From: Pseudomonadota bacterium
GTDB lineage: Bacteria; Pseudomonadota; Alphaproteobacteria; G022571365
Assembly: GCA_022571365.1 (NCBI GenBank)
Contig: JACZXZ010000007.1
Coordinates: forward strand, 3,366 to 67,365
Direction of reading: 5' to 3'
DNA length: 64,000 bases
The position numbers and the translations under genes are program-made. The notes below the pieces were generated by a model, which was not told the origin of the DNA, did no database searches, and saw only the letters and a program-made list of their open reading frames with translations. Below, piece by piece: positions 8,990-27,501 of this stretch. Within the stretch, counting starts at the first letter, position 1; every line of letters starts with the position of its first letter.

Positions 8990-10792
8990 ATGATGAGCAC
9001 CGCGACCGCCGTGCCGGTCGAAAGCGAGGCCCTGGGGGCGCTGCCCGAGTGGGATCTGGGCGATCTCTACCCGGGCCCGGAGGCCCCGGCCCTGGGTCGG
9101 GATCTCGAGGCGGCGGAGGCTGCCGCCAAGGCCTTCGGTGAGCGCTATCAGGGCCGGCTCGCCGGGCTTGGGGGCGGCGCGCTGGGCGCGGCGGTGGCCG
9201 AGTACGAGCGCATCGACGAGACGCTCTCCCGGATCATGAGCTACGCCCAGCTCCTCTATGCGGGCGATATGGCCACGCCCGAGATCGGCCGCTTCTTCCA
9301 GACCATGCAGGAGCGGACCAACGCCATCGCCACCGAAACCCTGTTCTTCACCCTTGAGCTCAACCGCCTCGACGACGCCGCGCTGGCCCGGAAGCTCAAG
9401 GCGGCCAGGCTCGCCCGCTACGGCCCCTGGATCCGGGACGTCCGCGCCTTCAGGCCGCATCAACTCTCGGACGAGGTCGAACGGCTTTTGCACGAGAAAC
9501 ACGTCGTCGGCCGCGCCGCGTGGATCCGCCTGTTCGACGAGACCGTGGCGGACCTGCGCTTTCCGGTCGGGGACAAGCGGCTCACCAGCGCCGAGGTGCT
9601 GCACCTGTTGTCCGACAAGGACCCGGCGGTCCGGCGCGAGGCGGCTTCCTCCCTGGGCCGGGTGCTGGGCGAGCAGGTGCGCACCTTCGCGCTCATCACC
9701 AACACGCTCGCCAAGGACAAGGAGATCGAGGACCGATTGCGCGGCTATAAGCGGCCGGTGTCTCCCCGCAATCTCGCAAACCACGTCGAGGACGAGGTGG
9801 TCGATGCGCTGGTGGAAGCCGTGAGGGGTGCCTATCCGGCGCTGTCACACCGCTACTACAAGATCAAGGCGCGCTGGTTCGGGGTCAAGCAGCTCGACTA
9901 CTGGGACCGCAACGCGCCGCTCGAGGAGGACGACGACCGGACGATCCCATGGGAGGAGGCGCGCGCCCGGGTGCTCGACGCCTATGCCGGCTTCTCGTCC
10001 AGGATGGCCGAGGTCGGCCGGCGCTTTTTCGACCATTCGTGGATCGATGCCGGCCCGCGCCCGGGCAAGGCGCCGGGGGCGTTCGCCCACCCCGCCGTGG
10101 CGGACGTCCACCCCTATCTGTTGCTCAACTATCAGGGCAAGACCCGGGATGTGATGACGCTCGCCCATGAGCTCGGCCACGGCGTTCATCAGCTGCTCGC
10201 CGCGCCCCGGGGGCAGCTCATGGCGGACACGCCCTTGACCCTGGCCGAGACCGCGTCGGTGTTCGGCGAGATGCTGACCTTCCGCGCGCTCCTCGATGCC
10301 GAGACCGACCGGGGAAGGCGCCGGGTCATACTCGCCGCCAAGGTCGAGGACATGCTCAACACGGTGGTGCGCCAGACGGCGTTCTACGAGTTCGAGAGCC
10401 GGGTGCACGACGAGCGCCGCAGGGCCGAGCTGACGCCCAGGCAAATCGGCGAGCTGTGGCTCGAGACCCAACGCGCGAGCCTGGGGCCGGCCATCCGCTT
10501 CGCGGACGACTACCAGTACTACTGGGCCTATATCCCGCACTTCATCCATACCCCGTTCTACGTCTACGCCTACGCCTTCGGCGAGTGCCTGGTGAACGCG
10601 CTCTACGCCGCCTACCAGGAGGCGCCGGCGGGGTTCGAGGAGAAGTATCTCGAGCTGTTGAAGGCCGGCGGCACCCTTCGCCATAAGGAGCTCTTGGAGC
10701 CGTTCGGCCTCGACGCGGGCGACCCGGCGTTTTGGGCCAAGGGGCTCGGCGTCATCGAGGGCTTCATCGACGAGCTGGAGGACTCGGCGTGA
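8990..10792 (+). CDS. pepF: oligoendopeptidase F (M3B metallopeptidase)
   Basis: 600-aa ORF with HELGH zinc motif (TLAHELGHGVHQ) and a downstream glutamate, as in the PepF family. Confidence 0.85.
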   Translation: MMSTATAVPVESEALGALPEWDLGDLYPGPEAPALGRDLEAAEAAAKAFGERYQGRLAGLGGGALGAAVAEYERIDETLSRIMSYAQLLYAGDMATPEIGRFFQTMQERTNAIATETLFFTLELNRLDDAALARKLKAARLARYGPWIRDVRAFRPHQLSDEVERLLHEKHVVGRAAWIRLFDETVADLRFPVGDKRLTSAEVLHLLSDKDPAVRREAASSLGRVLGEQVRTFALITNTLAKDKEIEDRLRGYKRPVSPRNLANHVEDEVVDALVEAVRGAYPALSHRYYKIKARWFGVKQLDYWDRNAPLEEDDDRTIPWEEARARVLDAYAGFSSRMAEVGRRFFDHSWIDAGPRPGKAPGAFAHPAVADVHPYLLLNYQGKTRDVMTLAHELGHGVHQLLAAPRGQLMADTPLTLAETASVFGEMLTFRALLDAETDRGRRRVILAAKVEDMLNTVVRQTAFYEFESRVHDERRRAELTPRQIGELWLETQRASLGPAIRFADDYQYYWAYIPHFIHTPFYVYAYAFGECLVNALYAAYQEAPAGFEEKYLELLKAGGTLRHKELLEPFGLDAGDPAFWAKGLGVIEGFIDELEDSA

Positions 10793-12138
10793 CCAAATCC
10801 TCGGAAGGCAGCACGCTCTCCGGCCGGGTCCGGCGCTATGCCCGGGTCTCGGCGACGGTCGGCGGGCTGGCCGCGCGCGTCGCGGGCGCGCACTATCTCG
10901 GCTTCGACCTCGACCGGGGCAAGCACGCGGCGGAGTTGGGGGCGGCGCTCGGCGGGCTCAAGGGCCCGCTGATGAAGGTCGCCCAGTTGATATCCACCGT
11001 TCCCGACGCGCTGCCCGAGGAGTACGTCCAGCAACTGACCCAGCTCCAGGCCAACGCGCCCTCCATGGGCTGGCGCTTCGTCCGGCGCCGCATGGCGGCG
11101 GAGCTGGGCCCGGACTGGCAGGGCCGCTTCAAGTCGTTCGAGCGCCAGGCGGCCAGGGCCGCTTCCCTGGGCCAGGTTCACCGGGCCGTCGGCCTCGACG
11201 GGAGCGCGCTCGCCTGCAAGCTCCAGTACCCCGACATGCAGTCGGCGGTCGAGGCCGATCTCAACCAGCTGAAGCTGGTGATGGCGATCTACGAGCGCTA
11301 CGACCGGGCGGTGGCGACCGGCGAGATCCACGCCGAGATCTCCACCCGCCTGGGCGAGGAGCTGGACTACGAGCGCGAGGCCCGTCACATGGCCCTCTAC
11401 GGCGCCATGCTCCGGCGCGAGCGCGGGGTAAAGGTGCCCGAGCTCGTGCCCGAGCTCTCGACCCGGCGGTTGTTGACCATGACCTGGCTCGACGGCCGGC
11501 CGCTCCTGGACATCGCGCAGGAGCCCCTCGAGCGGCGGAACCGGGTGGCCCACAATCTGTTCCGCGCCTGGTACCTGCCGTTTTACACCTACGGCGTCAT
11601 CCACGGCGATCCCCATCTGGGCAACTACACGGTCAGGCCCGACGGCACCTTGAACCTCATGGACTTCGGCTGCATCCGGGTGTTCCGGGCGTCCTTCGTC
11701 CAGGCTGTGATCGACCTTTATCATGCGCTCCAGAGGGGCGACCGGGCGCTCGCCGTCCACGCCTACGAGACCTGGGGCTTCGAGGGCCTGTCGCGCGAGC
11801 TCATCGAGGCGCTGAACCTGTGGGCGGAGTTCGTCTACGCGCCGCTCATGGAGGACCGCCCGCGGCGCATCCAGGAGAACGAGAGCGGCCTCTACGGCGC
11901 CGAGGTCGCGGCCAGGGTCCACCAGGAGCTGAGACGCTTGGGCGGGGTGACGCCGCCCCGGGAGTTCGTGCTCATGGACCGCGCCGCGATCGGACTGGGC
12001 TCGGTGTTCCTGCGCCTCAAGGCGGAGATCAACTGGTACGAGCTGTTCCACGGGCTCATCGACGGCTTCGATCAGGCCGCCCTCCACCGCCGCCAGGCCC
12101 GCGCCCTCAAGGCCGCCGGCCTGCCCCCGCCGGGGTGA
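10789..12138 (+). CDS. ABC1/UbiB-family atypical protein kinase
   Basis: GTG 10789 overlaps the pepF stop (GTGA). Translation carries ABC1/AarF kinase motifs (KVAQLISTVPDALPEEY, HGDPHLGN, IDFG). Confidence 0.78.
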   Translation: MTKSSEGSTLSGRVRRYARVSATVGGLAARVAGAHYLGFDLDRGKHAAELGAALGGLKGPLMKVAQLISTVPDALPEEYVQQLTQLQANAPSMGWRFVRRRMAAELGPDWQGRFKSFERQAARAASLGQVHRAVGLDGSALACKLQYPDMQSAVEADLNQLKLVMAIYERYDRAVATGEIHAEISTRLGEELDYEREARHMALYGAMLRRERGVKVPELVPELSTRRLLTMTWLDGRPLLDIAQEPLERRNRVAHNLFRAWYLPFYTYGVIHGDPHLGNYTVRPDGTLNLMDFGCIRVFRASFVQAVIDLYHALQRGDRALAVHAYETWGFEGLSRELIEALNLWAEFVYAPLMEDRPRRIQENESGLYGAEVAARVHQELRRLGGVTPPREFVLMDRAAIGLGSVFLRLKAEINWYELFHGLIDGFDQAALHRRQARALKAAGLPPPG

Positions 12139-12319
12139 GAAGGGGCCGCCGGCCTGCGCGCCTCCTCCTCCTTGGCGGCCTTCCCCGCGGGCGCGACCGC
12201 TTTGATTGTGCCTGTCCCGCCTCCCACACCCGTGGTCAACCGCCCCCTTGGCAAACCGGGCCGGAGGCGGCATTGTGTGCGCCCGCGAGATTGAGGATGC
12301 GCGCGTTGCCCGGGGGGCA

Positions 12320-12333
12320 TTGATTGAGATCAA
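12320..12333. promoter_or_regulatory. FNR/FixK-type box TTGATTGAGATCAA (perfect TTGAT-N4-ATCAA), inside extended palindrome GCATTGAT-TGAG-ATCAATGC
   Basis: Read directly, 73 nt upstream of the pntAA start codon. Confidence 0.5.
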
Positions 12334-15574: not shown

Positions 15575-16780
<1,206 letters not shown>

Positions 16781-17080: not shown

Positions 17081-17986
17081 CTATTCCGCCTCGGCCAGCT
17101 TCCCGACCGGCGCCCAGCCCGCAACGCCGTGGAAGAAGCCGTTGGAGAAGGCGGCGCCGTTCACCAGCTCGGCCAGGCGCTCCTCCGCTTGCGGCGGATC
17201 ACGACCGTCGAGCCCATCGCGGAACAGCCGCGCCACCTGGACCATGTCGGTGTTGTGGGGCGACAGGCGGAAACGCCTGATTCCCATCTCTTTGAGCGCT
17301 TTGAGCTCCCCCCACAGGTTGCCGTAGGTGGAGGACAGGATCTGGGGACCGTTGATGGCGAGGAAGGGCACCCCGTCCAGGGTCTCGACGTCCATGCCGT
17401 CCGGATCCTGGTCGCAGACGAACTGGCAGTTGTCCTTCAGCAGGCCGCACGACCGGGCGTGATAGCAGCGCGCCGAGATCGCCAGAGGCAGTCGGCCGAA
17501 CACCTGAACCTCCAGTTCCACGTCGCTCGAGGCGGCGAGAACCGCCAGGGACTCGGCCGGCAGCTCCACCGGCAGGCACACGCGCGTCGCCCCGCGCTCG
17601 ACGAGGTAGGCGAGCGTAGCCTCGTTGTAGACGTTGATGAAAGGGCCGATGGCATGGGGCCGGCCCGCCAGCAGGGCCGCGGCCGAGATGTCGTTGGCCT
17701 CCACGTACAGCCCCTCGGTGGCGGCGATGGCGCGGACGTGGGCCGTCTCGCGCTCGTCCATGATTAAGGCCAGGGTCGAAAACACCACCTCCTTCCCGGT
17801 CCTCTCCAGGCGCTCCACCACGGCCGCGAGATAGGGCTCGAAAAGCGGTCGGCGTTTGGAGCACACCACCTCGCCGAGGCAGACGCTGTCCACCGGCGCC
17901 TCGTCCGCGATGCCGAAGTAGAAGTCCCGCCATGCCTCGGGGGCCCAGTTGAAAAGGACCGGGCCCAGCGTCAGCTTCGCTTCCAC
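17081..17986 (-). CDS. ubiV: U32-family protein UbiV (O2-independent ubiquinone biosynthesis)
   Basis: 301 aa. Similarity blocks to E. coli YhbV/UbiV (LGPVLFNWAPE, CSKRR, LSTLAL, conserved Cys ARCYHARSC). Directly downstream of ubiU. Confidence 0.75.
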   Translation of the reverse strand: MEAKLTLGPVLFNWAPEAWRDFYFGIADEAPVDSVCLGEVVCSKRRPLFEPYLAAVVERLERTGKEVVFSTLALIMDERETAHVRAIAATEGLYVEANDISAAALLAGRPHAIGPFINVYNEATLAYLVERGATRVCLPVELPAESLAVLAASSDVELEVQVFGRLPLAISARCYHARSCGLLKDNCQFVCDQDPDGMDVETLDGVPFLAINGPQILSSTYGNLWGELKALKEMGIRRFRLSPHNTDMVQVARLFRDGLDGRDPPQAEERLAELVNGAAFSNGFFHGVAGWAPVGKLAEAE

Positions 17987-18024
17987 CTACTTGTCCTCGT
18001 CCATTCCCCGGCGAGCGCGGCGCG

Positions 18025-19014
18025 TCAGCGCCACGTCTTCTCGTAGGCCCCGGCGGTCTCGCGCTGACCTTCCATGACCGCGTGGAGCGCCGGGGCGGGC
18101 ACCGGATCGCCTCTCGCCGCCGCATCCACGGCCCGGCGCAAGGCGGCGACCACCTGAGCGACATAGGCGCGGCCGCGCTGGCGGCCCTCGATCTTCAGCG
18201 CCGTCACGCCGGCCGCTATCAGTTCCGGCAACACGGAAATGGCGCTCAAGGAGGTGGGTTCCTCAAACAGGTAGGCCGCGCGCCCCCGGGTCACGAAGCG
18301 CCCCTTGCACAGGGTCGGGTAGCTCGCCGCCTCGCCGTCGGCGAAGGCGTTGATCGTGAAGTCGCCCAGCCTGCAGACCAACCTGCCACCTTGCTCGATG
18401 TACCGTACATGGCTCGCGGGCGAGCACACCCCGTTCATATTAGGCGACTGGCCGGTGACGTACGACGACAGGGCACAGCGCCCCTCGGCCATGCAGCCCA
18501 CGCTGCCGAAGATGAACACCTCGGTCTCCACCGGAATCTGTTTATTGAGCGCCGCAATCTCGGCGACGGTGAAGATCCGCGGCAGCACAACCCGCTTGAT
18601 GTTGAACTCCCGATGGTAGAAGCAGATGGCCTCGGCGTTGGAGGCCGAAGCCTGCACCGACAGGTGGCGGCGCAGCTCCGGGTGTTTGCGGGCTACATAG
18701 TCGATGAGGCCGATGTCGGCCAGGATAACGGCATCGGCCCCCAAACGGGCGGCGTCATCCACGGCACGGTGCCAGGGGCCAAGGTCGCCGGCGCGGGGAA
18801 AAGTGTTGATGGCGACCAGGATCTTGACCCCGCGGTCGTGGGCGTAGGAGAGCCCTTCTTTGAGCTCGTCCCGGGTGAAATTGAGCCCCGGAAAGTTGCG
18901 GGCATTGGTCTCGTCGCGGAAACCCAAGTAGACCGAGTCGCCGCCGGCGTCCACGGCGGCCTTGAGCGCGGCCGGCGTTCCTGCCGGGCACACCAGCTCC
19001 AGGGCTCTGTTCAT
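18025..19014 (-). CDS. ubiU: U32-family protein UbiU (O2-independent ubiquinone biosynthesis)
   Basis: 329 aa, aligns along its length with E. coli YhbU/UbiU (ELVCPAG, NARNFPGLNF, SVQASASN, EGRCALSSY, YPTLCKGR, KIEGRQR). Confidence 0.8.
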   Translation of the reverse strand: MNRALELVCPAGTPAALKAAVDAGGDSVYLGFRDETNARNFPGLNFTRDELKEGLSYAHDRGVKILVAINTFPRAGDLGPWHRAVDDAARLGADAVILADIGLIDYVARKHPELRRHLSVQASASNAEAICFYHREFNIKRVVLPRIFTVAEIAALNKQIPVETEVFIFGSVGCMAEGRCALSSYVTGQSPNMNGVCSPASHVRYIEQGGRLVCRLGDFTINAFADGEAASYPTLCKGRFVTRGRAAYLFEEPTSLSAISVLPELIAAGVTALKIEGRQRGRAYVAQVVAALRRAVDAAARGDPVPAPALHAVMEGQRETAGAYEKTWR

Positions 19015-19679
19015 GGCCGCTTCGCCCGGGCCCGACGGCTTCGCCGGCGCGGGGGGCTCAAGCGCTCTTCCAGACCGTCCAGCTCGGCGGCCAGCGCGTC
19101 GCTGCGCATGATCGCCGGGGCGATCGTCGCCGCGCGCAGGGTTTCCAGGTCCTCGGCCGCGCGGGCGAACACCGCGCCGGCGCCCCGGACCAGAAAGCGG
19201 GCCGGCCTCGCCAACGGACCGAGGAAGGAGAGCAGGTCGGCCACGATGTCGATCTCCGCGCCGTCCACGGCGTTGCGGAGCGCCACCACGGCCTCGGTCT
19301 CGCCCTCGATCACCAGATCGCGGGAAAAGAACAGGGCGTCCCCGTCTATACGCCCTTCCAGGAGATCAATGAGGCTCAGGAGGGGAGCGCGGATCGTGGC
19401 CGTCGCCTCGACCGCTCCCGCGCCGCCGAGGGCGACGAGGCTGGGCGCCTCCGCGTCGGGGTGCAACAGGAAGACGAAGGGCAGGTCCACCGGATCGATG
19501 AGGAACAAGGTATCGCCCAGCTCCGCCAGCCGCTCGAACATGGCGGGGTGGCGGCGGTGTATGATCGTCATCGCGACGGTCAGCGCCGGCTGCAACAAGA
19601 CCGGCGGCATCGGCCGTAGCGCCAAGCCGACCAGCAACACCGGGGACAAAGGCGGCGTCTGGCGTCGTGGCTCGCTCAT
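19011..19679 (-). CDS. ubiT: SCP2-domain protein UbiT
   Basis: Start taken at MSEPRRQ... (ATG 19679-19677 on - strand). The 19011..19841 ORF extends further upstream. Contains the LFFSRDLVIEGETEAVVALRNAVD block matching E. coli YhbT/UbiT. Stop overlaps ubiU start (ATGA). Confidence 0.65.
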   Translation of the reverse strand: MSEPRRQTPPLSPVLLVGLALRPMPPVLLQPALTVAMTIIHRRHPAMFERLAELGDTLFLIDPVDLPFVFLLHPDAEAPSLVALGGAGAVEATATIRAPLLSLIDLLEGRIDGDALFFSRDLVIEGETEAVVALRNAVDGAEIDIVADLLSFLGPLARPARFLVRGAGAVFARAAEDLETLRAATIAPAIMRSDALAAELDGLEERLSPPRRRSRRARAKRP

Positions 19680-19762
19680 CGCGAAGTATGGGCGCGGTAT
19701 GGGCCTTTTGGCGGCGTCGTCCTGGCGTGCCAGACGCTCCGTCCGCCGTCTTTCAGGGGCAT

Positions 19763-19776
19763 TGGCCAAGATCAAA
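19763..19776. promoter_or_regulatory. FNR/FixK-like box TTGGCCAAGATCAA (TTGg-N6-TCAA core, one mismatch)
   Basis: 84 nt upstream of ubiT start. Shares the flanking context GGGGCATTG...AGATCAA with the pntAA box. Confidence 0.4.
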
Positions 19777-19888
19777 TAACCTCCGACCACCGGCCGGTGC
19801 CGCTGGGGCTGCGCCCCCGACGCGGGTGCCGTGGCCCGCATCTCGCGGCGCCGGGCGGGGAAGCGGCGAGGCGTGAAGCACGGCCAGC

Positions 19889-20545
19889 TCAGCCGACGGC
19901 TTGATCAGGGTAAGCTAGCTCATGCCGGGCTCTCCATTCGTCCTTGACGTAGTTGACGATTATCAATTTCCGCACGCCGTCGATGGGGCGCTTGTGGAAT
20001 CCGTGCCAAGTGTTCGTTCCCGGAATAAAGATGAGCCCGCAGTTGAACTCGTAGGGCACGGTGGCGACGAGGTTCAACTTTTCGTCCAGTATATCGGTGC
20101 CCCATTTTTCCGACCCCGGGTCCGTCGACAGGTATACCAGCATGGTAAACAGCTTCGCGCTTATGTCGGTATGGGGCTCCAGCCAGAAACCATCCGTGTC
20201 CTGGCAGTACTCGATGCGGAGAAAACTCCCCTTCAGCGCCACCCCGCAGGTGCTTTCTAATTTCCTGATCGTTGTTCCGTTTTGCAGCGCCTTCGCTACC
20301 TCGCGGCAGACATCGAAACGGCGGCGGTTCTCCACCGAGAAAAAAGTCCTCGTGTCGTTGTTTGTCTCCCGTTTTCCCTTGGTGTCCTTGATGCGAGGCG
20401 GATCAAGAGGAAGTGCCTTTACTGCATTGCAGACATCCTCCGGGAACACGTCTCCGAGAAACCAATGCCGGTACGGCTTGGTCCCGGCCCGGCCGTGATC
20501 TAAACAAGCAAAGAACTTGTCCATTATCGCGGCGGTATCGATCAC
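19889..20545 (-). CDS. putative Fe(II)/2-oxoglutarate-dependent oxygenase (218 aa)
   Basis: HxD...H candidate iron ligands (WLEPHTD ... WHGFH). GC ~55%. Domain family not firmly assigned. Confidence 0.5.
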   Translation of the reverse strand: MIDTAAIMDKFFACLDHGRAGTKPYRHWFLGDVFPEDVCNAVKALPLDPPRIKDTKGKRETNNDTRTFFSVENRRRFDVCREVAKALQNGTTIRKLESTCGVALKGSFLRIEYCQDTDGFWLEPHTDISAKLFTMLVYLSTDPGSEKWGTDILDEKLNLVATVPYEFNCGLIFIPGTNTWHGFHKRPIDGVRKLIIVNYVKDEWRARHELAYPDQAVG

Positions 20546-20710
20546 TGGTGTGCCCTCTCTTCAAAGTTCGATATTCGCGCATTTCGACCGCCCCTTCCTG
20601 CTCCGAAGCCTCACGGCTTTCGACGCCTTATCGGAACAGGCTGGCCTCGCTCGGTTCATCGGCGTCCTTTTTCGCGATCGCGTTTGGGCCCTGGCAGCGC
20701 GCGCGAAATC

Positions 20711-21469
20711 CTAGACGCGGTAGACGTACTCCTTGCCCGGTTCGCGTTCGATGTCTGGTGGAAAGCTCTTGCGCTTGTCGGCGTGGTACCGGGCCGAGTG
20801 GTCGCCCTCCGACAGACGGTTGTAAGTGACGAAATAGAGGCGCCGGATCTTGTCGCTCATGTTGGGCTCCGAAGCGTGCGGCGCGTAGGAATCGAAGAAC
20901 GCCACGTCGCCCGGCTTGGTCGGGCAGGAAACGAACTCCATTCCTTCCATGTCCTCCTCGGTCAGCGGCTCCCACTCGCGGAACAGCCCCCGCTTGTGGT
21001 GCCCGGCCACCATCTTGAGGCACCCGTTTTCGACGGTCGCCTCGTCGATGCAGACCAAGACGCTGATGTAGTAACTGCCGTAATTCCACCAGCCGGCCTG
21101 GGAATCCTGATGCGGCTTGAAGCCGTCACCCCCGGGCATCTTGAAATTGATCTTCTCCTTGAACAGCACGGTCTCCTCGCCCAGAAGCTGACCCACCGGG
21201 GCTTTCAGCACCGTGCTCAGCTCGGCGAAACCCGAATGGAACGGCGAGATATTTTCAATGCGGTTAATCAGCTCCTTGCTGGGATCGAGCAGGCTTTGCT
21301 CGTGATAGACCCAATGCCTGCCGGGTTCCTCCGGGAGCGCGGCCAGTTCCCGTGTCCAGGCTTCGATCTTCTGCATTTCCGCCGCGTCAAACACAGCCCG
21401 AACGACGACGTATCCATCCCTGTGAAAATTGCTGATCTGCTGATCCGTAAGCACCAGCGTTGTTAGCAT
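20711..21469 (-). CDS. phytanoyl-CoA dioxygenase (PhyH) family Fe(II)/2OG oxygenase
   Basis: 252 aa with PhyH-like motifs (KPHQDSQ HxD, distal YAPHAS). Confidence 0.75.
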   Translation of the reverse strand: MLTTLVLTDQQISNFHRDGYVVVRAVFDAAEMQKIEAWTRELAALPEEPGRHWVYHEQSLLDPSKELINRIENISPFHSGFAELSTVLKAPVGQLLGEETVLFKEKINFKMPGGDGFKPHQDSQAGWWNYGSYYISVLVCIDEATVENGCLKMVAGHHKRGLFREWEPLTEEDMEGMEFVSCPTKPGDVAFFDSYAPHASEPNMSDKIRRLYFVTYNRLSEGDHSARYHADKRKSFPPDIEREPGKEYVYRV

Positions 21470-21598
21470 CGGAGGCCTCCCTTCGTGGCACTCGACGGTT
21501 GGAAGAAACGGCTCTCGCGGGGGCGGTCGGCCATGATCGTGACCCCGCGCGAGTCAGACTGGCCCGAGCGATGCTAACAGGCATTTCCCGTATGTCGT

Positions 21599-21612
21599 TT
21601 GATCTAGATCAA
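21599..21612. promoter_or_regulatory. perfect FNR/FixK box TTGATCTAGATCAA (fully palindromic)
   Basis: Read directly. 130 nt upstream of the PhyH-family gene start (- strand) and 545 nt upstream of the cytochrome gene. Confidence 0.5.
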
Positions 21613-22156
21613 TTTCCCGCTACCACGCCGGGGGATCGGCAACCGCGTGACGTGCTTTGTGTTACGCACCACCTCCGCCCATCGCCCCGCAGACGTGGTG
21701 GCGACTGGCTTCGAACGTTTTCCGCAGGGTCCCGGTGGTCTATCCGGCTCGCGGCCGGCTATTGCCGGTGACCGGTCGCCGGCCCAATACCAGCACCGAC
21801 CGGGAAGGGACGCTTCAGGGATTTCCTCGCTTCCTCCCTTTATGGGGGTTCTTTGATGATTGGGGCTCTTTGATGCCAAGATTATCGGCGTGCAACACGG
21901 CTATGAAGTATAATATTCATTCAATTAATTATGCACTTAGTAAGAGTTATACACTTAGTAATAATGTATCTAGAATTTAGATGCTAATGATTATAATTAT
22001 CACTTCCAATCAAAGAATCACTCCGTAACTTTTTCGTGAAACCGACTCGTATCTGTTGCTGGCAACCTTGAGCCAACGTACTTTAGCTTTGTGTGGTTCT
22101 TTGGCATCTCTTTCCTCCGAGCCACGTCTATTTACTTATTTACTGCGGAGGTAAAC

Positions 22157-23371
22157 ATGAGGGGTCGCGCAGGCAAATGGGCGGCATTGACCGTAACCGG
22201 GCTGGCTGCCGTTGCCTTGGCCGTCCTCCTTGCCATCGGGTTTTCCCGGTTCTCCTCAGGGGGGGTGAGCGGGGCTTCCATGCCGAGCGACTACTGGCGT
22301 CTGCCGCTTGCGCCCCAGGGCGAGGCACCGGACCATTGGAGCGCGCCCGAGCGGTCTCTGGCGCCGGAGTCCTGCGCCGAGTGTCACGCAGACCAGTACG
22401 AGCAGTGGCGGACCTCGCTCCATGCCGGCGCCTTTTCACCAGGGTTGGTGGGACAGTTGCTCACCTACGACGCCGGCCAGATTTCAGGCTGTATGCAATG
22501 CCACGCGCCCCTCGCCGAACAACCGCGGGATTTTAAGGCCGCGCGCGAGAAGGGAGTCGCTCACCTCGCCACGGGTCAAGGGCTGGCCGCCGCAGGTGTG
22601 GCCTGCGGGGCCTGCCACTTGCGCGGCCACCGCCGCTTTGGCCCGCCCCAGCGAGACACCGGCGCGACCGGCCAGAGTGATACCGACGCCCCGCATGGGG
22701 GAGTGTACCGGGCGGCGTGGTTCGAGGAATCCGAATTCTGCGCCGCCTGTCACCAATTTCCGCAGGACTACGCGGTCAACGGCAAGCCACTGGAGAACAC
22801 TGTCGTCGAGTGGCAAGAGAGTCCTTTCGCCGCCGAGGGGGTCACCTGCCAGACCTGTCACATGCCTGATCGCAGGCATCTGTGGCGCGGCATCCACGAT
22901 CCCGATATGGTCGCCAAGGGGCTCACGGCCCGGTTTTCCGCCACCGCCGAAGGCGCCCGCTTCACCCTGACCAACAGCGGTGTTGGGCACGCCTTTCCCA
23001 CCTACGTCACGCCCCGGGTGGAGATGCGCGCGGTGGCGTTGGATGACGCGGGACGGCCGGTGCCGGCCACTGCCGCCCGCCACGTTATCCAGCGCATCGT
23101 CTCCTCCACGGCCCGAGGATGGATCGAGCTCGCCGACAGCCGCCTTCTGCCTGGTGAGGAGGCGAGCCTCTTCCTGCCTTGGCAAGGCTACGCCAAGGCG
23201 CGGCTGTGGTTGGAAGTCAAGCCCGACGACTACTATGACAATCAGGTCTACGATGTTTTGTTGGCCGGGTTGGCGCCGGATTCCCCCTCGGCTATCCTGA
23301 TTGCCCGCGCCGATCGCATCGCGCGGGCCAGCAGCTACCGTCTGTTCGTCACCGAGATCGAGAGACCCTAG
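22157..23371 (+). CDS. pentaheme c-type cytochrome with N-terminal signal anchor
   Basis: SD GGAGGT 5 nt before ATG 22157. Five CxxCH motifs (CAECH, CMQCH, CGACH, CAACH, CQTCH). Hydrophobic N-terminus. Confidence 0.8.
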   Translation: MRGRAGKWAALTVTGLAAVALAVLLAIGFSRFSSGGVSGASMPSDYWRLPLAPQGEAPDHWSAPERSLAPESCAECHADQYEQWRTSLHAGAFSPGLVGQLLTYDAGQISGCMQCHAPLAEQPRDFKAAREKGVAHLATGQGLAAAGVACGACHLRGHRRFGPPQRDTGATGQSDTDAPHGGVYRAAWFEESEFCAACHQFPQDYAVNGKPLENTVVEWQESPFAAEGVTCQTCHMPDRRHLWRGIHDPDMVAKGLTARFSATAEGARFTLTNSGVGHAFPTYVTPRVEMRAVALDDAGRPVPATAARHVIQRIVSSTARGWIELADSRLLPGEEASLFLPWQGYAKARLWLEVKPDDYYDNQVYDVLLAGLAPDSPSAILIARADRIARASSYRLFVTEIERP

Positions 23372-25797: not shown

Positions 25798-25883
25798 GGA
25801 GGGGTGCCCGAGCGGCCAAAGGGAGCAGACTGTAAATCTGCCGGCGTACGCCTACGTAGGTTCGAATCCTACCCCCTCCACCA
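25798..25883 (+). tRNA. tRNA-Tyr (anticodon GTA), class II with long variable arm, CCA encoded
   Basis: ggaggggtgcccgagcggcc...gactGTAaatc...ggttcgaatcctaccccctccacca. Acceptor ggagggg/cccctcc. Confidence 0.9.
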
Positions 25884-25919
25884 CGGCTCGAGGGGGCAGC
25901 GTAGAAGGGTCTGAGAGGT

Positions 25920-25993
<74 letters not shown>

Positions 25994-27425: not shown

Positions 27426-27501
27426 AGGAGTGTAGCTCAACGGGTAGAGCACCGGTCTCCAAAACCGGGGGTTGTAGGTTCGAGTCCTGCCACTCCTGCC
27501 A
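27426..27501 (+). tRNA. tRNA-Trp (anticodon CCA), CCA end encoded
   Basis: aggagtgtagctcaacgggtagagc accggtctCCAaaaccgg ... ggttcgagtcctgc cactcct g cca. Confidence 0.9.

Follow-up and report, generated by a model that had tools for sequence, protein, structure and literature searches.

How does a bacterium keep building ubiquinone when O2 is absent, and how might it confine the use of the genes for this to such conditions? Both questions are raised by a cluster of three genes at positions 17081–19776 of the DNA analyzed here, the window, which comprises 64,000 nucleotides (nt) of contig JACZXZ010000007.1 (GenBank assembly GCA_022571365.1, positions 3,366 to 67,365, forward strand). An original prediction made from the letters alone had described the cluster as a ubiT-ubiU-ubiV operon under FNR control. 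Our comparative analysis supports an operon for O2-independent ubiquinone biosynthesis, preceded by an FNR-type box, in an uncultured Rhodospirillales-type alphaproteobacterium; we place the probability of this reading at about 0.85. The three genes, in order of transcription, are as follows.

19011..19679, minus strand: ubiT, 222 amino acids, ATG start at 19679; SCP2-domain accessory factor.
18025..19014, minus strand: ubiU, 329 amino acids; U32-family iron–sulfur (Fe-S) protein, one half of the O2-independent hydroxylase by homology.
17081..17986, minus strand: ubiV, 301 amino acids, GTG start; U32-family Fe-S protein, partner of UbiU.

The O2-independent pathway was described in 2019 in mBio, with UbiU and UbiV as a heterodimer that holds one [4Fe-4S] cluster in each subunit and acts in O2-independent hydroxylation of the ring (PMC6747719). 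Prephenate is the oxygen donor (PMC10990095), and UbiJ has its anaerobic counterpart in UbiT, a lipid-binding protein of the SCP2 type (PMC10470549; 10.1101/2020.03.22.002311). FNR control of Escherichia coli ubiUV and ubiT was shown in 2023, again in mBio (PMC10470549). A survey of 1566 ubiTUV loci in ISME J in 2024 distinguished four conserved architectures across Pseudomonadota and found candidate FNR sites before ubiT or ubiU in 87% of the loci, Alphaproteobacteria included; in the same-strand architectures, such a site precedes the first gene in 65% or 78% (PMC11707229). The pathway, its Fe-S ligands, the oxygen donor, the architectures, and the occurrence of FNR sites across Pseudomonadota are all published, and the window locus is a routine same-strand, ubiT-first instance that differs from its E. 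coli and Pseudomonas aeruginosa counterparts in arrangement only.

To assign the proteins, NCBIfam equivalog models with curated cut-offs and Pfam models were applied to the window. All three proteins score above the cut-offs of their own equivalog hidden Markov models: UbiT reaches 63.1 bits against NF047962 (cut-off 46.9), UbiU 509.9 bits against NF047963 (cut-off 440), and UbiV 365.4 bits against NF047965 (cut-off 275). UbiT also matches the Pfam SCP2 domain (E-value 2.3e-7), and Peptidase_U32 matches both UbiU and UbiV. Aligned with the E. coli K-12 proteins, UbiU is 51%, UbiV 35%, and UbiT 28% identical. Models and alignments agree with the original description of three co-oriented genes, one SCP2 and two U32, resembling YhbT, YhbU, and YhbV; the three window genes all lie on the minus strand. 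The identity of the system is borne out by these scores together with a gene order and a tight spacing like those of the conserved ubiTUV locus (PMC11707229). As had been noted, the genes overlap or nearly abut: ubiT and ubiU share a 4-nt ATGA at 19014–19011, and 38 nt separate ubiU from ubiV. On its downstream side, the locus is bounded by an aspartate aminotransferase gene (15578..16780) in convergent orientation, and the intergenic stretch upstream of ubiT runs from 19680 to 19888 (209 nt).

The extent of that intergenic stretch depends on the start assigned to ubiT, for which some gene callers, on near-identical metagenome contigs, chose a 276-residue open reading frame beginning at 19841. 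This longer frame was rejected because alignments with E. coli UbiT and with most relatives begin at about the methionine at 19679, and because two 1-nt insertions or deletions in L092, the sister locus, disrupt the extended frame. Matches to relatives begin at residues 1–10 of the shorter protein, and in L092 the sequence is conserved from ATGAGCGAGCCACGA onward, unlike the frame of the upstream extension. With ubiT starting at 19679, the FNR-type box at 19762–19775, described below, is intergenic and does not fall inside coding sequence.

The surrounding family was defined by a scan with one genome per species, which yielded 80 related loci of Rhodospirillales type (Magnetospira, Kiloniella, Telmatospirillum, and Magnetospirillum among them), with UbiU identities of at most 76%. 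In about 75 of the 80, the complete set of three genes could be detected, and each of these loci has them in the order T-U-V on a single strand; the remaining loci are cut by contig ends or have no detectable ubiT or ubiV. Wherever ubiV was detected in a relative, it is paired with ubiU. A UbiU protein identical to that of the window occurs on 12 metagenome contigs, four of which, from different samples, were examined, and no close cultured relative was found in the collections searched. The C-terminal tail of the window UbiT (residues ~150–222, within 19011–19220) is about 50 residues longer than that of E. coli UbiT and ends in a basic stretch, RRRSRRARAKRP; its length is conserved in most of the Rhodospirillales-type relatives, in which it could be matched to residue ~207–222. 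One 532-residue protein, P0176, combines the SCP2 and Peptidase_U32 Pfam domains and appears to be either a natural UbiT–UbiU fusion or a merged gene call.

The Fe-S ligands of the E. coli proteins have been defined experimentally as C169, C176, C193, and C232 in UbiU (CX6CX16CX38C) and C39, C180, C193, and C197 in UbiV (CXnCX12CX3C) (PMC6747719). In the window UbiV, all four are kept, C42, C174, C187, and C191 aligning with the E. coli residues in that order. The window UbiU also has four cysteines, of which C180, C197, and C236 fall exactly in the columns of E. coli C176, C193, and C232. The column of the first ligand is occupied by Gly173, and the cysteine stands instead at 174, giving CX5CX16CX38C. 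The loss of these ligands, named at the outset as grounds for doubting the assignment, was thus not found, the one departure being a first UbiU cysteine one residue out of place. Around this site (ubiU codons 172–180, 18474–18500), the window has FGSVGCMAEGRC as opposed to FGGLCVMAEGRC in relatives, with GSVGCM in place of GGLCVM.

The published description treats the first UbiU cysteine as strictly conserved. Among 121 close UbiU sequences, it stands at the canonical column (173) in 112, and the displacement in the window protein counts as a point against our reading of the operon. The other three cysteines are invariant across the 121. The first is missing in seven (P0189, P0196, P0209, P0219, P0221, P0224, and P0235), which have serine or glycine in its place; five of these seven carry an extra cysteine at window column 231. 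Locus L037 is also named among those whose UbiU homologues lack the first cysteine ligand. The one-residue shift was seen solely within the 97% cluster to which the window protein belongs. The canonical motif is retained by relatives at 90% identity, and the difference from the sister species at that distance amounts to about seven nucleotide changes clustered within 21 nt. Judged from these alignments, the window UbiU is a natural, species-specific variant with its putative first Fe-S ligand moved along by one residue.

The candidate regulatory element lies in the intergenic stretch upstream of ubiT, next to a short hairpin.

19762–19775: degenerate FNR/CRP-family box, TTGGCCAAGATCAA, which reads TTGATCTTGGCCAA in gene orientation.
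19783..19797, minus strand: short GC hairpin followed by TTATTT, found in a consensus scan, directly before the box.

The promoter-distal half of the box is perfect, and the proximal half reads GCCAA. It had been placed 84 nt upstream of ubiT; the measured separation from the ATG is 82 nt, with the box center at 89.5 nt. The single mismatch originally counted holds for the core TTGA-N6-TCAA and becomes two for the full consensus TTGAT-N4-ATCAA (8 of 10 bases). Such a degree of degeneracy has precedent in F1 (TTGATTTAAGGCAG) and F2 (TTGATTTATACCGC), the experimentally validated sites of E. coli, each of which pairs a good half with a degenerate one (PMC10470549); the second half of the window box is better than theirs.

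FNR-type control of ubiTUV is plausible mainly because the box lies at the distance from ubiT at which relatives have theirs. Of the 75 relatives with enough upstream sequence, 38 have a box with at most two mismatches 40–120 nt before the estimated ubiT start, set against a background of 3.9% per 81 nt elsewhere in the same loci. Thirteen of these boxes are perfect and 19 have one mismatch. The distance to ubiT has a median of 83 nt (interquartile range 79–88), compared to 89 nt for the window box, and of the relatives' six two-mismatch boxes, five fall at 79–94 nt. A weight matrix built from the relatives' ubiT-upstream boxes ranks the window box fifth among ~64,000 positions; its 14.7 bits lie near the low end of the training sites (12.7–26.2 bits), which had been picked by consensus beforehand. 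Four strain-level contigs and the sister species (90% UbiU identity) carry the identical box, and a homologous segment, TTGATGATGGCGAA, with the TTGAT half kept, is found in L094 at 81% identity. Finally, three sites in the window fit TTGAY-N4-RTCAA, which points indirectly to an FNR/CRP-family regulon.

Several observations weigh on the other side. Sites of this quality are frequent in the window, where 36 have at most two mismatches to the 5+5 consensus and 32 at most one to the 4+4 core, or about one per 2 kb, so that the match to the motif, taken by itself, could be due to chance. About half of the 75 relatives scanned have no box before ubiT. At ~7% intergenic divergence, an unchanged 14-mer is expected in about one-third of cases, which renders the shallow conservation uninformative. 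A consensus promoter scan found no sigma-70-like −10/−35 pair downstream of the box, and a tblastn search with E. coli FNR found no fnr homologue in the 64-kb window (best E-value 1.5). On balance, we favor, with some reserve, the view that the box is a functional FNR/CRP-family site. The FNR control originally proposed by reference to E. coli is accordingly plausible and fits the literature, although it is drawn from a degenerate box. E. coli itself, with a divergent ubiT, has no T-U-V operon. It may be added that FNR-like 14-mers with up to two mismatches are about four times commoner in the window than in dinucleotide-preserving shuffles (36 versus 8.8); they lie mostly in coding sequence, and their excess is likely due to codon or peptide bias.

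The hairpin beside the box may be a weak terminator of the upstream gene. A strain variant changes one of its G-T pairs to G-C, and the number of hairpin-type sites in the scan is no higher than in shuffled sequence.

A further argument of the original prediction was that the ubiT box shares its sequence context with a perfect box upstream of pntAA, whose gene product was identified by NF006942 (441.7 bits, cut-off 383). That box is present where it was expected.

12320–12333: perfect FNR box, TTGATTGAGATCAA, ~80 nt before pntAA.

The shared string also exists: GGGGCATTG-N4-AGATCAA occurs in the window only at 12314 (12314–12333) and 19756. This two-site count is circular, since the same two sites had supplied the pattern, and the string is no evidence for the ubiT box, its flank being polymorphic. 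The GGGGCA flank was rejected as an extended recognition motif, since two strain contigs and the sister species read GGGACA there. The flank lies on the promoter-distal side at pntAA and on the proximal side at ubiT, and a third, perfect box at 21599–21612 is without it. On the other side of the pntAA box, an ABC1/UbiB-family kinase-like gene (10732–12138, plus strand) stops 182 nt short of it; the score of this gene does not reach the UbiB equivalog cut-off.

From the homologous systems of E. coli and P. aeruginosa, a simple model can be drawn for the operon. UbiU and UbiV would form a heterodimer with one [4Fe-4S] cluster per subunit and would hydroxylate the ring of ubiquinone precursors without O2, taking the oxygen from prephenate, while UbiT, through its SCP2 lipid-binding domain, would present the hydrophobic intermediates to the pair. 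At low O2, an FNR-type regulator (FnrL, FixK, or a similar protein) is expected to bind the box at 19762–19775 and to activate a promoter ~40 nt downstream, which would lead to induction of the operon. Part of the transcription of ubiTUV may come instead by read-through from the perfect box at 21599–21612, 1.9 kb upstream. Between that box and ubiT lie two genes for oxygenase-like proteins of the Fe(II)/2-oxoglutarate (2OG) type, one of which contains another FNR-like site.

19889..20545, minus strand: 218-residue protein of a large, widespread family named '2OG-Fe(II) oxygenase' by NCBI, with a visible HxD...H...R motif.
20711..21469, minus strand: PhyH-family (phytanoyl-CoA dioxygenase-like) protein, 252 amino acids; Pfam PF05721 at 3e-32.
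21599–21612: TTGATCTAGATCAA, a perfect FNR box that shares its strand with ubiTUV and precedes the ATG of the PhyH-like gene by 136 nt.
19953–19966: one-mismatch FNR-like box, TTGATAATCGTCAA in gene orientation, in the 3' end of the 218-residue gene, 280 nt before the ubiT start.

The 218-residue protein has no Pfam or NCBIfam match and 2734 homologues in a homology search; every NCBIfam equivalog match of the PhyH-like protein is below its cut-off. In the window, 165 nt separate the PhyH-like gene from the 218-residue gene, and 209 nt separate the latter from ubiT. The G+C content over the two oxygenase genes is 0.56–0.63, compared to ~0.68 around them, and falls to 0.43 at 21800–22199, on the way from the PhyH-like gene to a multiheme cytochrome c gene (22091–23371), which suggests that 19800–22200 combines an inserted segment with an AT-rich divergent promoter region. 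The cytochrome gene diverges from the side of the 21599–21612 box.

The same association is found in relatives. Homologues of the 218-residue gene lie directly upstream of ubiT in L041, in the sister species L092, and in L097 and L098. L097 (3314–7886) carries PhyH, 2OG_Oxy_3, the 218-residue homologue, ubiT, ubiU, and ubiV in succession, with gaps of 16–17 nt and a single perfect FNR box ahead of the operon's first gene. In L041 (2670–6978), the 218-residue homologue overlaps ubiT by 4 nt, and an FkbO/RidA-like gene heads the operon. Perfect boxes precede the equivalent oxygenase modules in L097, L098 (454–4630), and L116 (4125–10297), and, over the related loci as a group, such modules upstream of ubiTUV follow perfect or one-mismatch boxes.

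Elsewhere, the 218-residue family is seldom linked to ubiquinone genes. In an unbiased metagenome scan of loci with its homologues (L099–L178), ubiTUV lay nearby in one of 80; with three other contexts without ubiTUV, a role as a general ubiquinone-pathway gene was rejected. The family's usual partner is a 2OG-FeII_Oxy_3 protein of ~210 residues. In the metagenome set, 11 of 63 of its modules have an FNR box with at most one mismatch within 300 nt upstream, compared to ~2% expected, and the family seems often to belong to a low-O2, FNR-type regulon. Our reading of these comparisons is that the linkage of oxygenases to ubiTUV is specific to one clade, in some lineages (L097 and L041) as a single, tight operon. 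It is doubtful, and in our view a long shot, that the PhyH-like and 218-residue proteins (with 2OG_Oxy_3 in relatives) have a functional link to the synthesis of quinones at very low O2. If they did, the upstream oxygenases could be ring hydroxylases that use O2 with high affinity and span the microoxic range; L097 has three oxygenase genes, and three ring hydroxylations are needed for ubiquinone. The plainer reading is that the linkage reflects shared FNR control and clade-specific synteny only.

The box within the 218-residue gene, at 19953–19966, is the third-best weight-matrix match in the window. Its sequence codes for the conserved peptide L-I-I-V-N within RKLIIVNYV, and the box is therefore largely a by-product of coding. 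Unlinked homologues carry versions with one to four mismatches (mostly two to four) at the same codons, and in a comparison of five independent lineages, those linked to ubiTUV are only marginally better. A role for this box as a true ubiTUV site was not established.

These neighbors bear on the explanation that competes most directly with the model above, namely that the ubiTUV genes are genuine and the box at 19762–19775 is a chance or decayed sequence, the operon being constitutive or controlled by read-through from 21599–21612 across the PhyH-like and 218-residue genes. The compact operon of L097, with its one box at the head, shows an arrangement of this kind, L041 and L098 are similarly arranged, the ubiT box is only a two-mismatch site, and ubiTUV loci of Magnetococcia are reported to lack FNR sites (PMC11707229). 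In the window itself, by contrast, the gaps around the 218-residue gene are wide, the hairpin and T-run intervene just before the box, and the box stands at the canonical distance from ubiT, as do most of the two-mismatch boxes of relatives. We regard this alternative as unlikely, yet as the one that most deserves to be kept in mind. A defect in the pathway itself is considerably less probable: the shift of the first ligand (G173/C174) could mark a functionally impaired UbiU in a decaying pathway, as the restriction of CX5C to this species-level cluster, the retention of GGLCVM at 90% identity, and the five clustered amino-acid changes that flank the site might suggest. Against such decay, all three reading frames are intact and the cysteine is kept one residue away; the window and its sister differ by 36 synonymous and 33 non-synonymous codon changes, roughly consistent with purifying selection; the seven relatives without this cysteine indicate that the position is tolerant; and the identical protein recurs on the 12 contigs mentioned above.

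It is least probable of all, to the point of being hardly credible, that the two U32 proteins act on RNA as hydroxylases like TrhP or RlhA, or that they are genuine peptidases. The Peptidase_U32 domain is common to all of these, TrhP gives a secondary match, and TrhP and RlhA likewise have a four-cysteine Fe-S motif and catalyze a prephenate-linked hydroxylation that is O2-independent (PMC6747719; PMC10470549). Nevertheless, the TrhP model yields 163.5 bits for UbiU and 19.9 for UbiV, far short of its cut-off (534), while each protein scores above the cut-off of its own UbiU or UbiV model; TrhP and RlhA are single proteins that act on tRNA or rRNA and have no paired SCP2 gene, whereas a pair of U32 genes behind ubiT is the defining structure of the locus (PMC11707229); and the UbiV-specific CXnCX12CX3C pattern is present.

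Compared with E. coli, the operon has the same three families, the Fe-S cysteine motifs apart from the displaced first ligand of UbiU, ubiU followed by ubiV, and a box with one good TTGAT half. The difference is that ubiT and ubiUV diverge in E. coli, with a separate FNR site for each unit and an additional constitutive promoter for ubiT, whereas the window genes are co-oriented behind a single intergenic region, with a longer UbiT tail and CX5C in place of CX6C in UbiU. In P. aeruginosa, ubiUVT (PA3913–PA3911) is likewise a single same-strand operon, is essential for anaerobic ubiquinone synthesis, and, according to the survey of ubiTUV loci, has been formally demonstrated to be controlled by an FNR homologue (10.1101/2020.03.22.002311, per PMC11707229); it is gammaproteobacterial, has the order U-V-T, and adjoins molybdopterin genes. 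The closest likeness is to the alphaproteobacterial ubiT-ubiU-ubiV loci of the ISME J survey (PMC11707229), which have the same order, tight spacing, and an FNR-type palindrome ~80 nt before ubiT. The window departs from them in its weaker box, whose two mismatches compare with none or one in most boxes of relatives, and in the two oxygenase-like genes with their own perfect box upstream.

By analogy with these systems, the organism can probably keep making ubiquinone once oxygen is exhausted, a capacity that fits the nearby multiheme cytochrome gene and the other FNR-type boxes. For specialists, two features may be of use: the slide of the first UbiU ligand, in a family in which some relatives lack that ligand altogether, and the recurrence of FNR-boxed Fe(II)/2OG-oxygenase genes before ubiTUV in one clade.

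Two related loci show further variation in the region before ubiT. At 2743–3921 of L041, a 392-residue protein combines a RidA/L-PSP domain with a faint FkbO/Hyg5 chorismatase-like N-terminus and, judged by these domains, could supply a hydroxybenzoate ring precursor. L094 (1–2092) retains only remnants of the PhyH-like and 218-residue genes and has a Rieske/VanA_C-type oxygenase gene before ubiT. An Rfam scan of the 64-kb window, which gave no match in the ubiTUV leader, returned three tRNAs only; their genes, at 25798–25990 and 27426–27498, lie beside the EF-Tu, ribosomal-protein, and rpoBC region.

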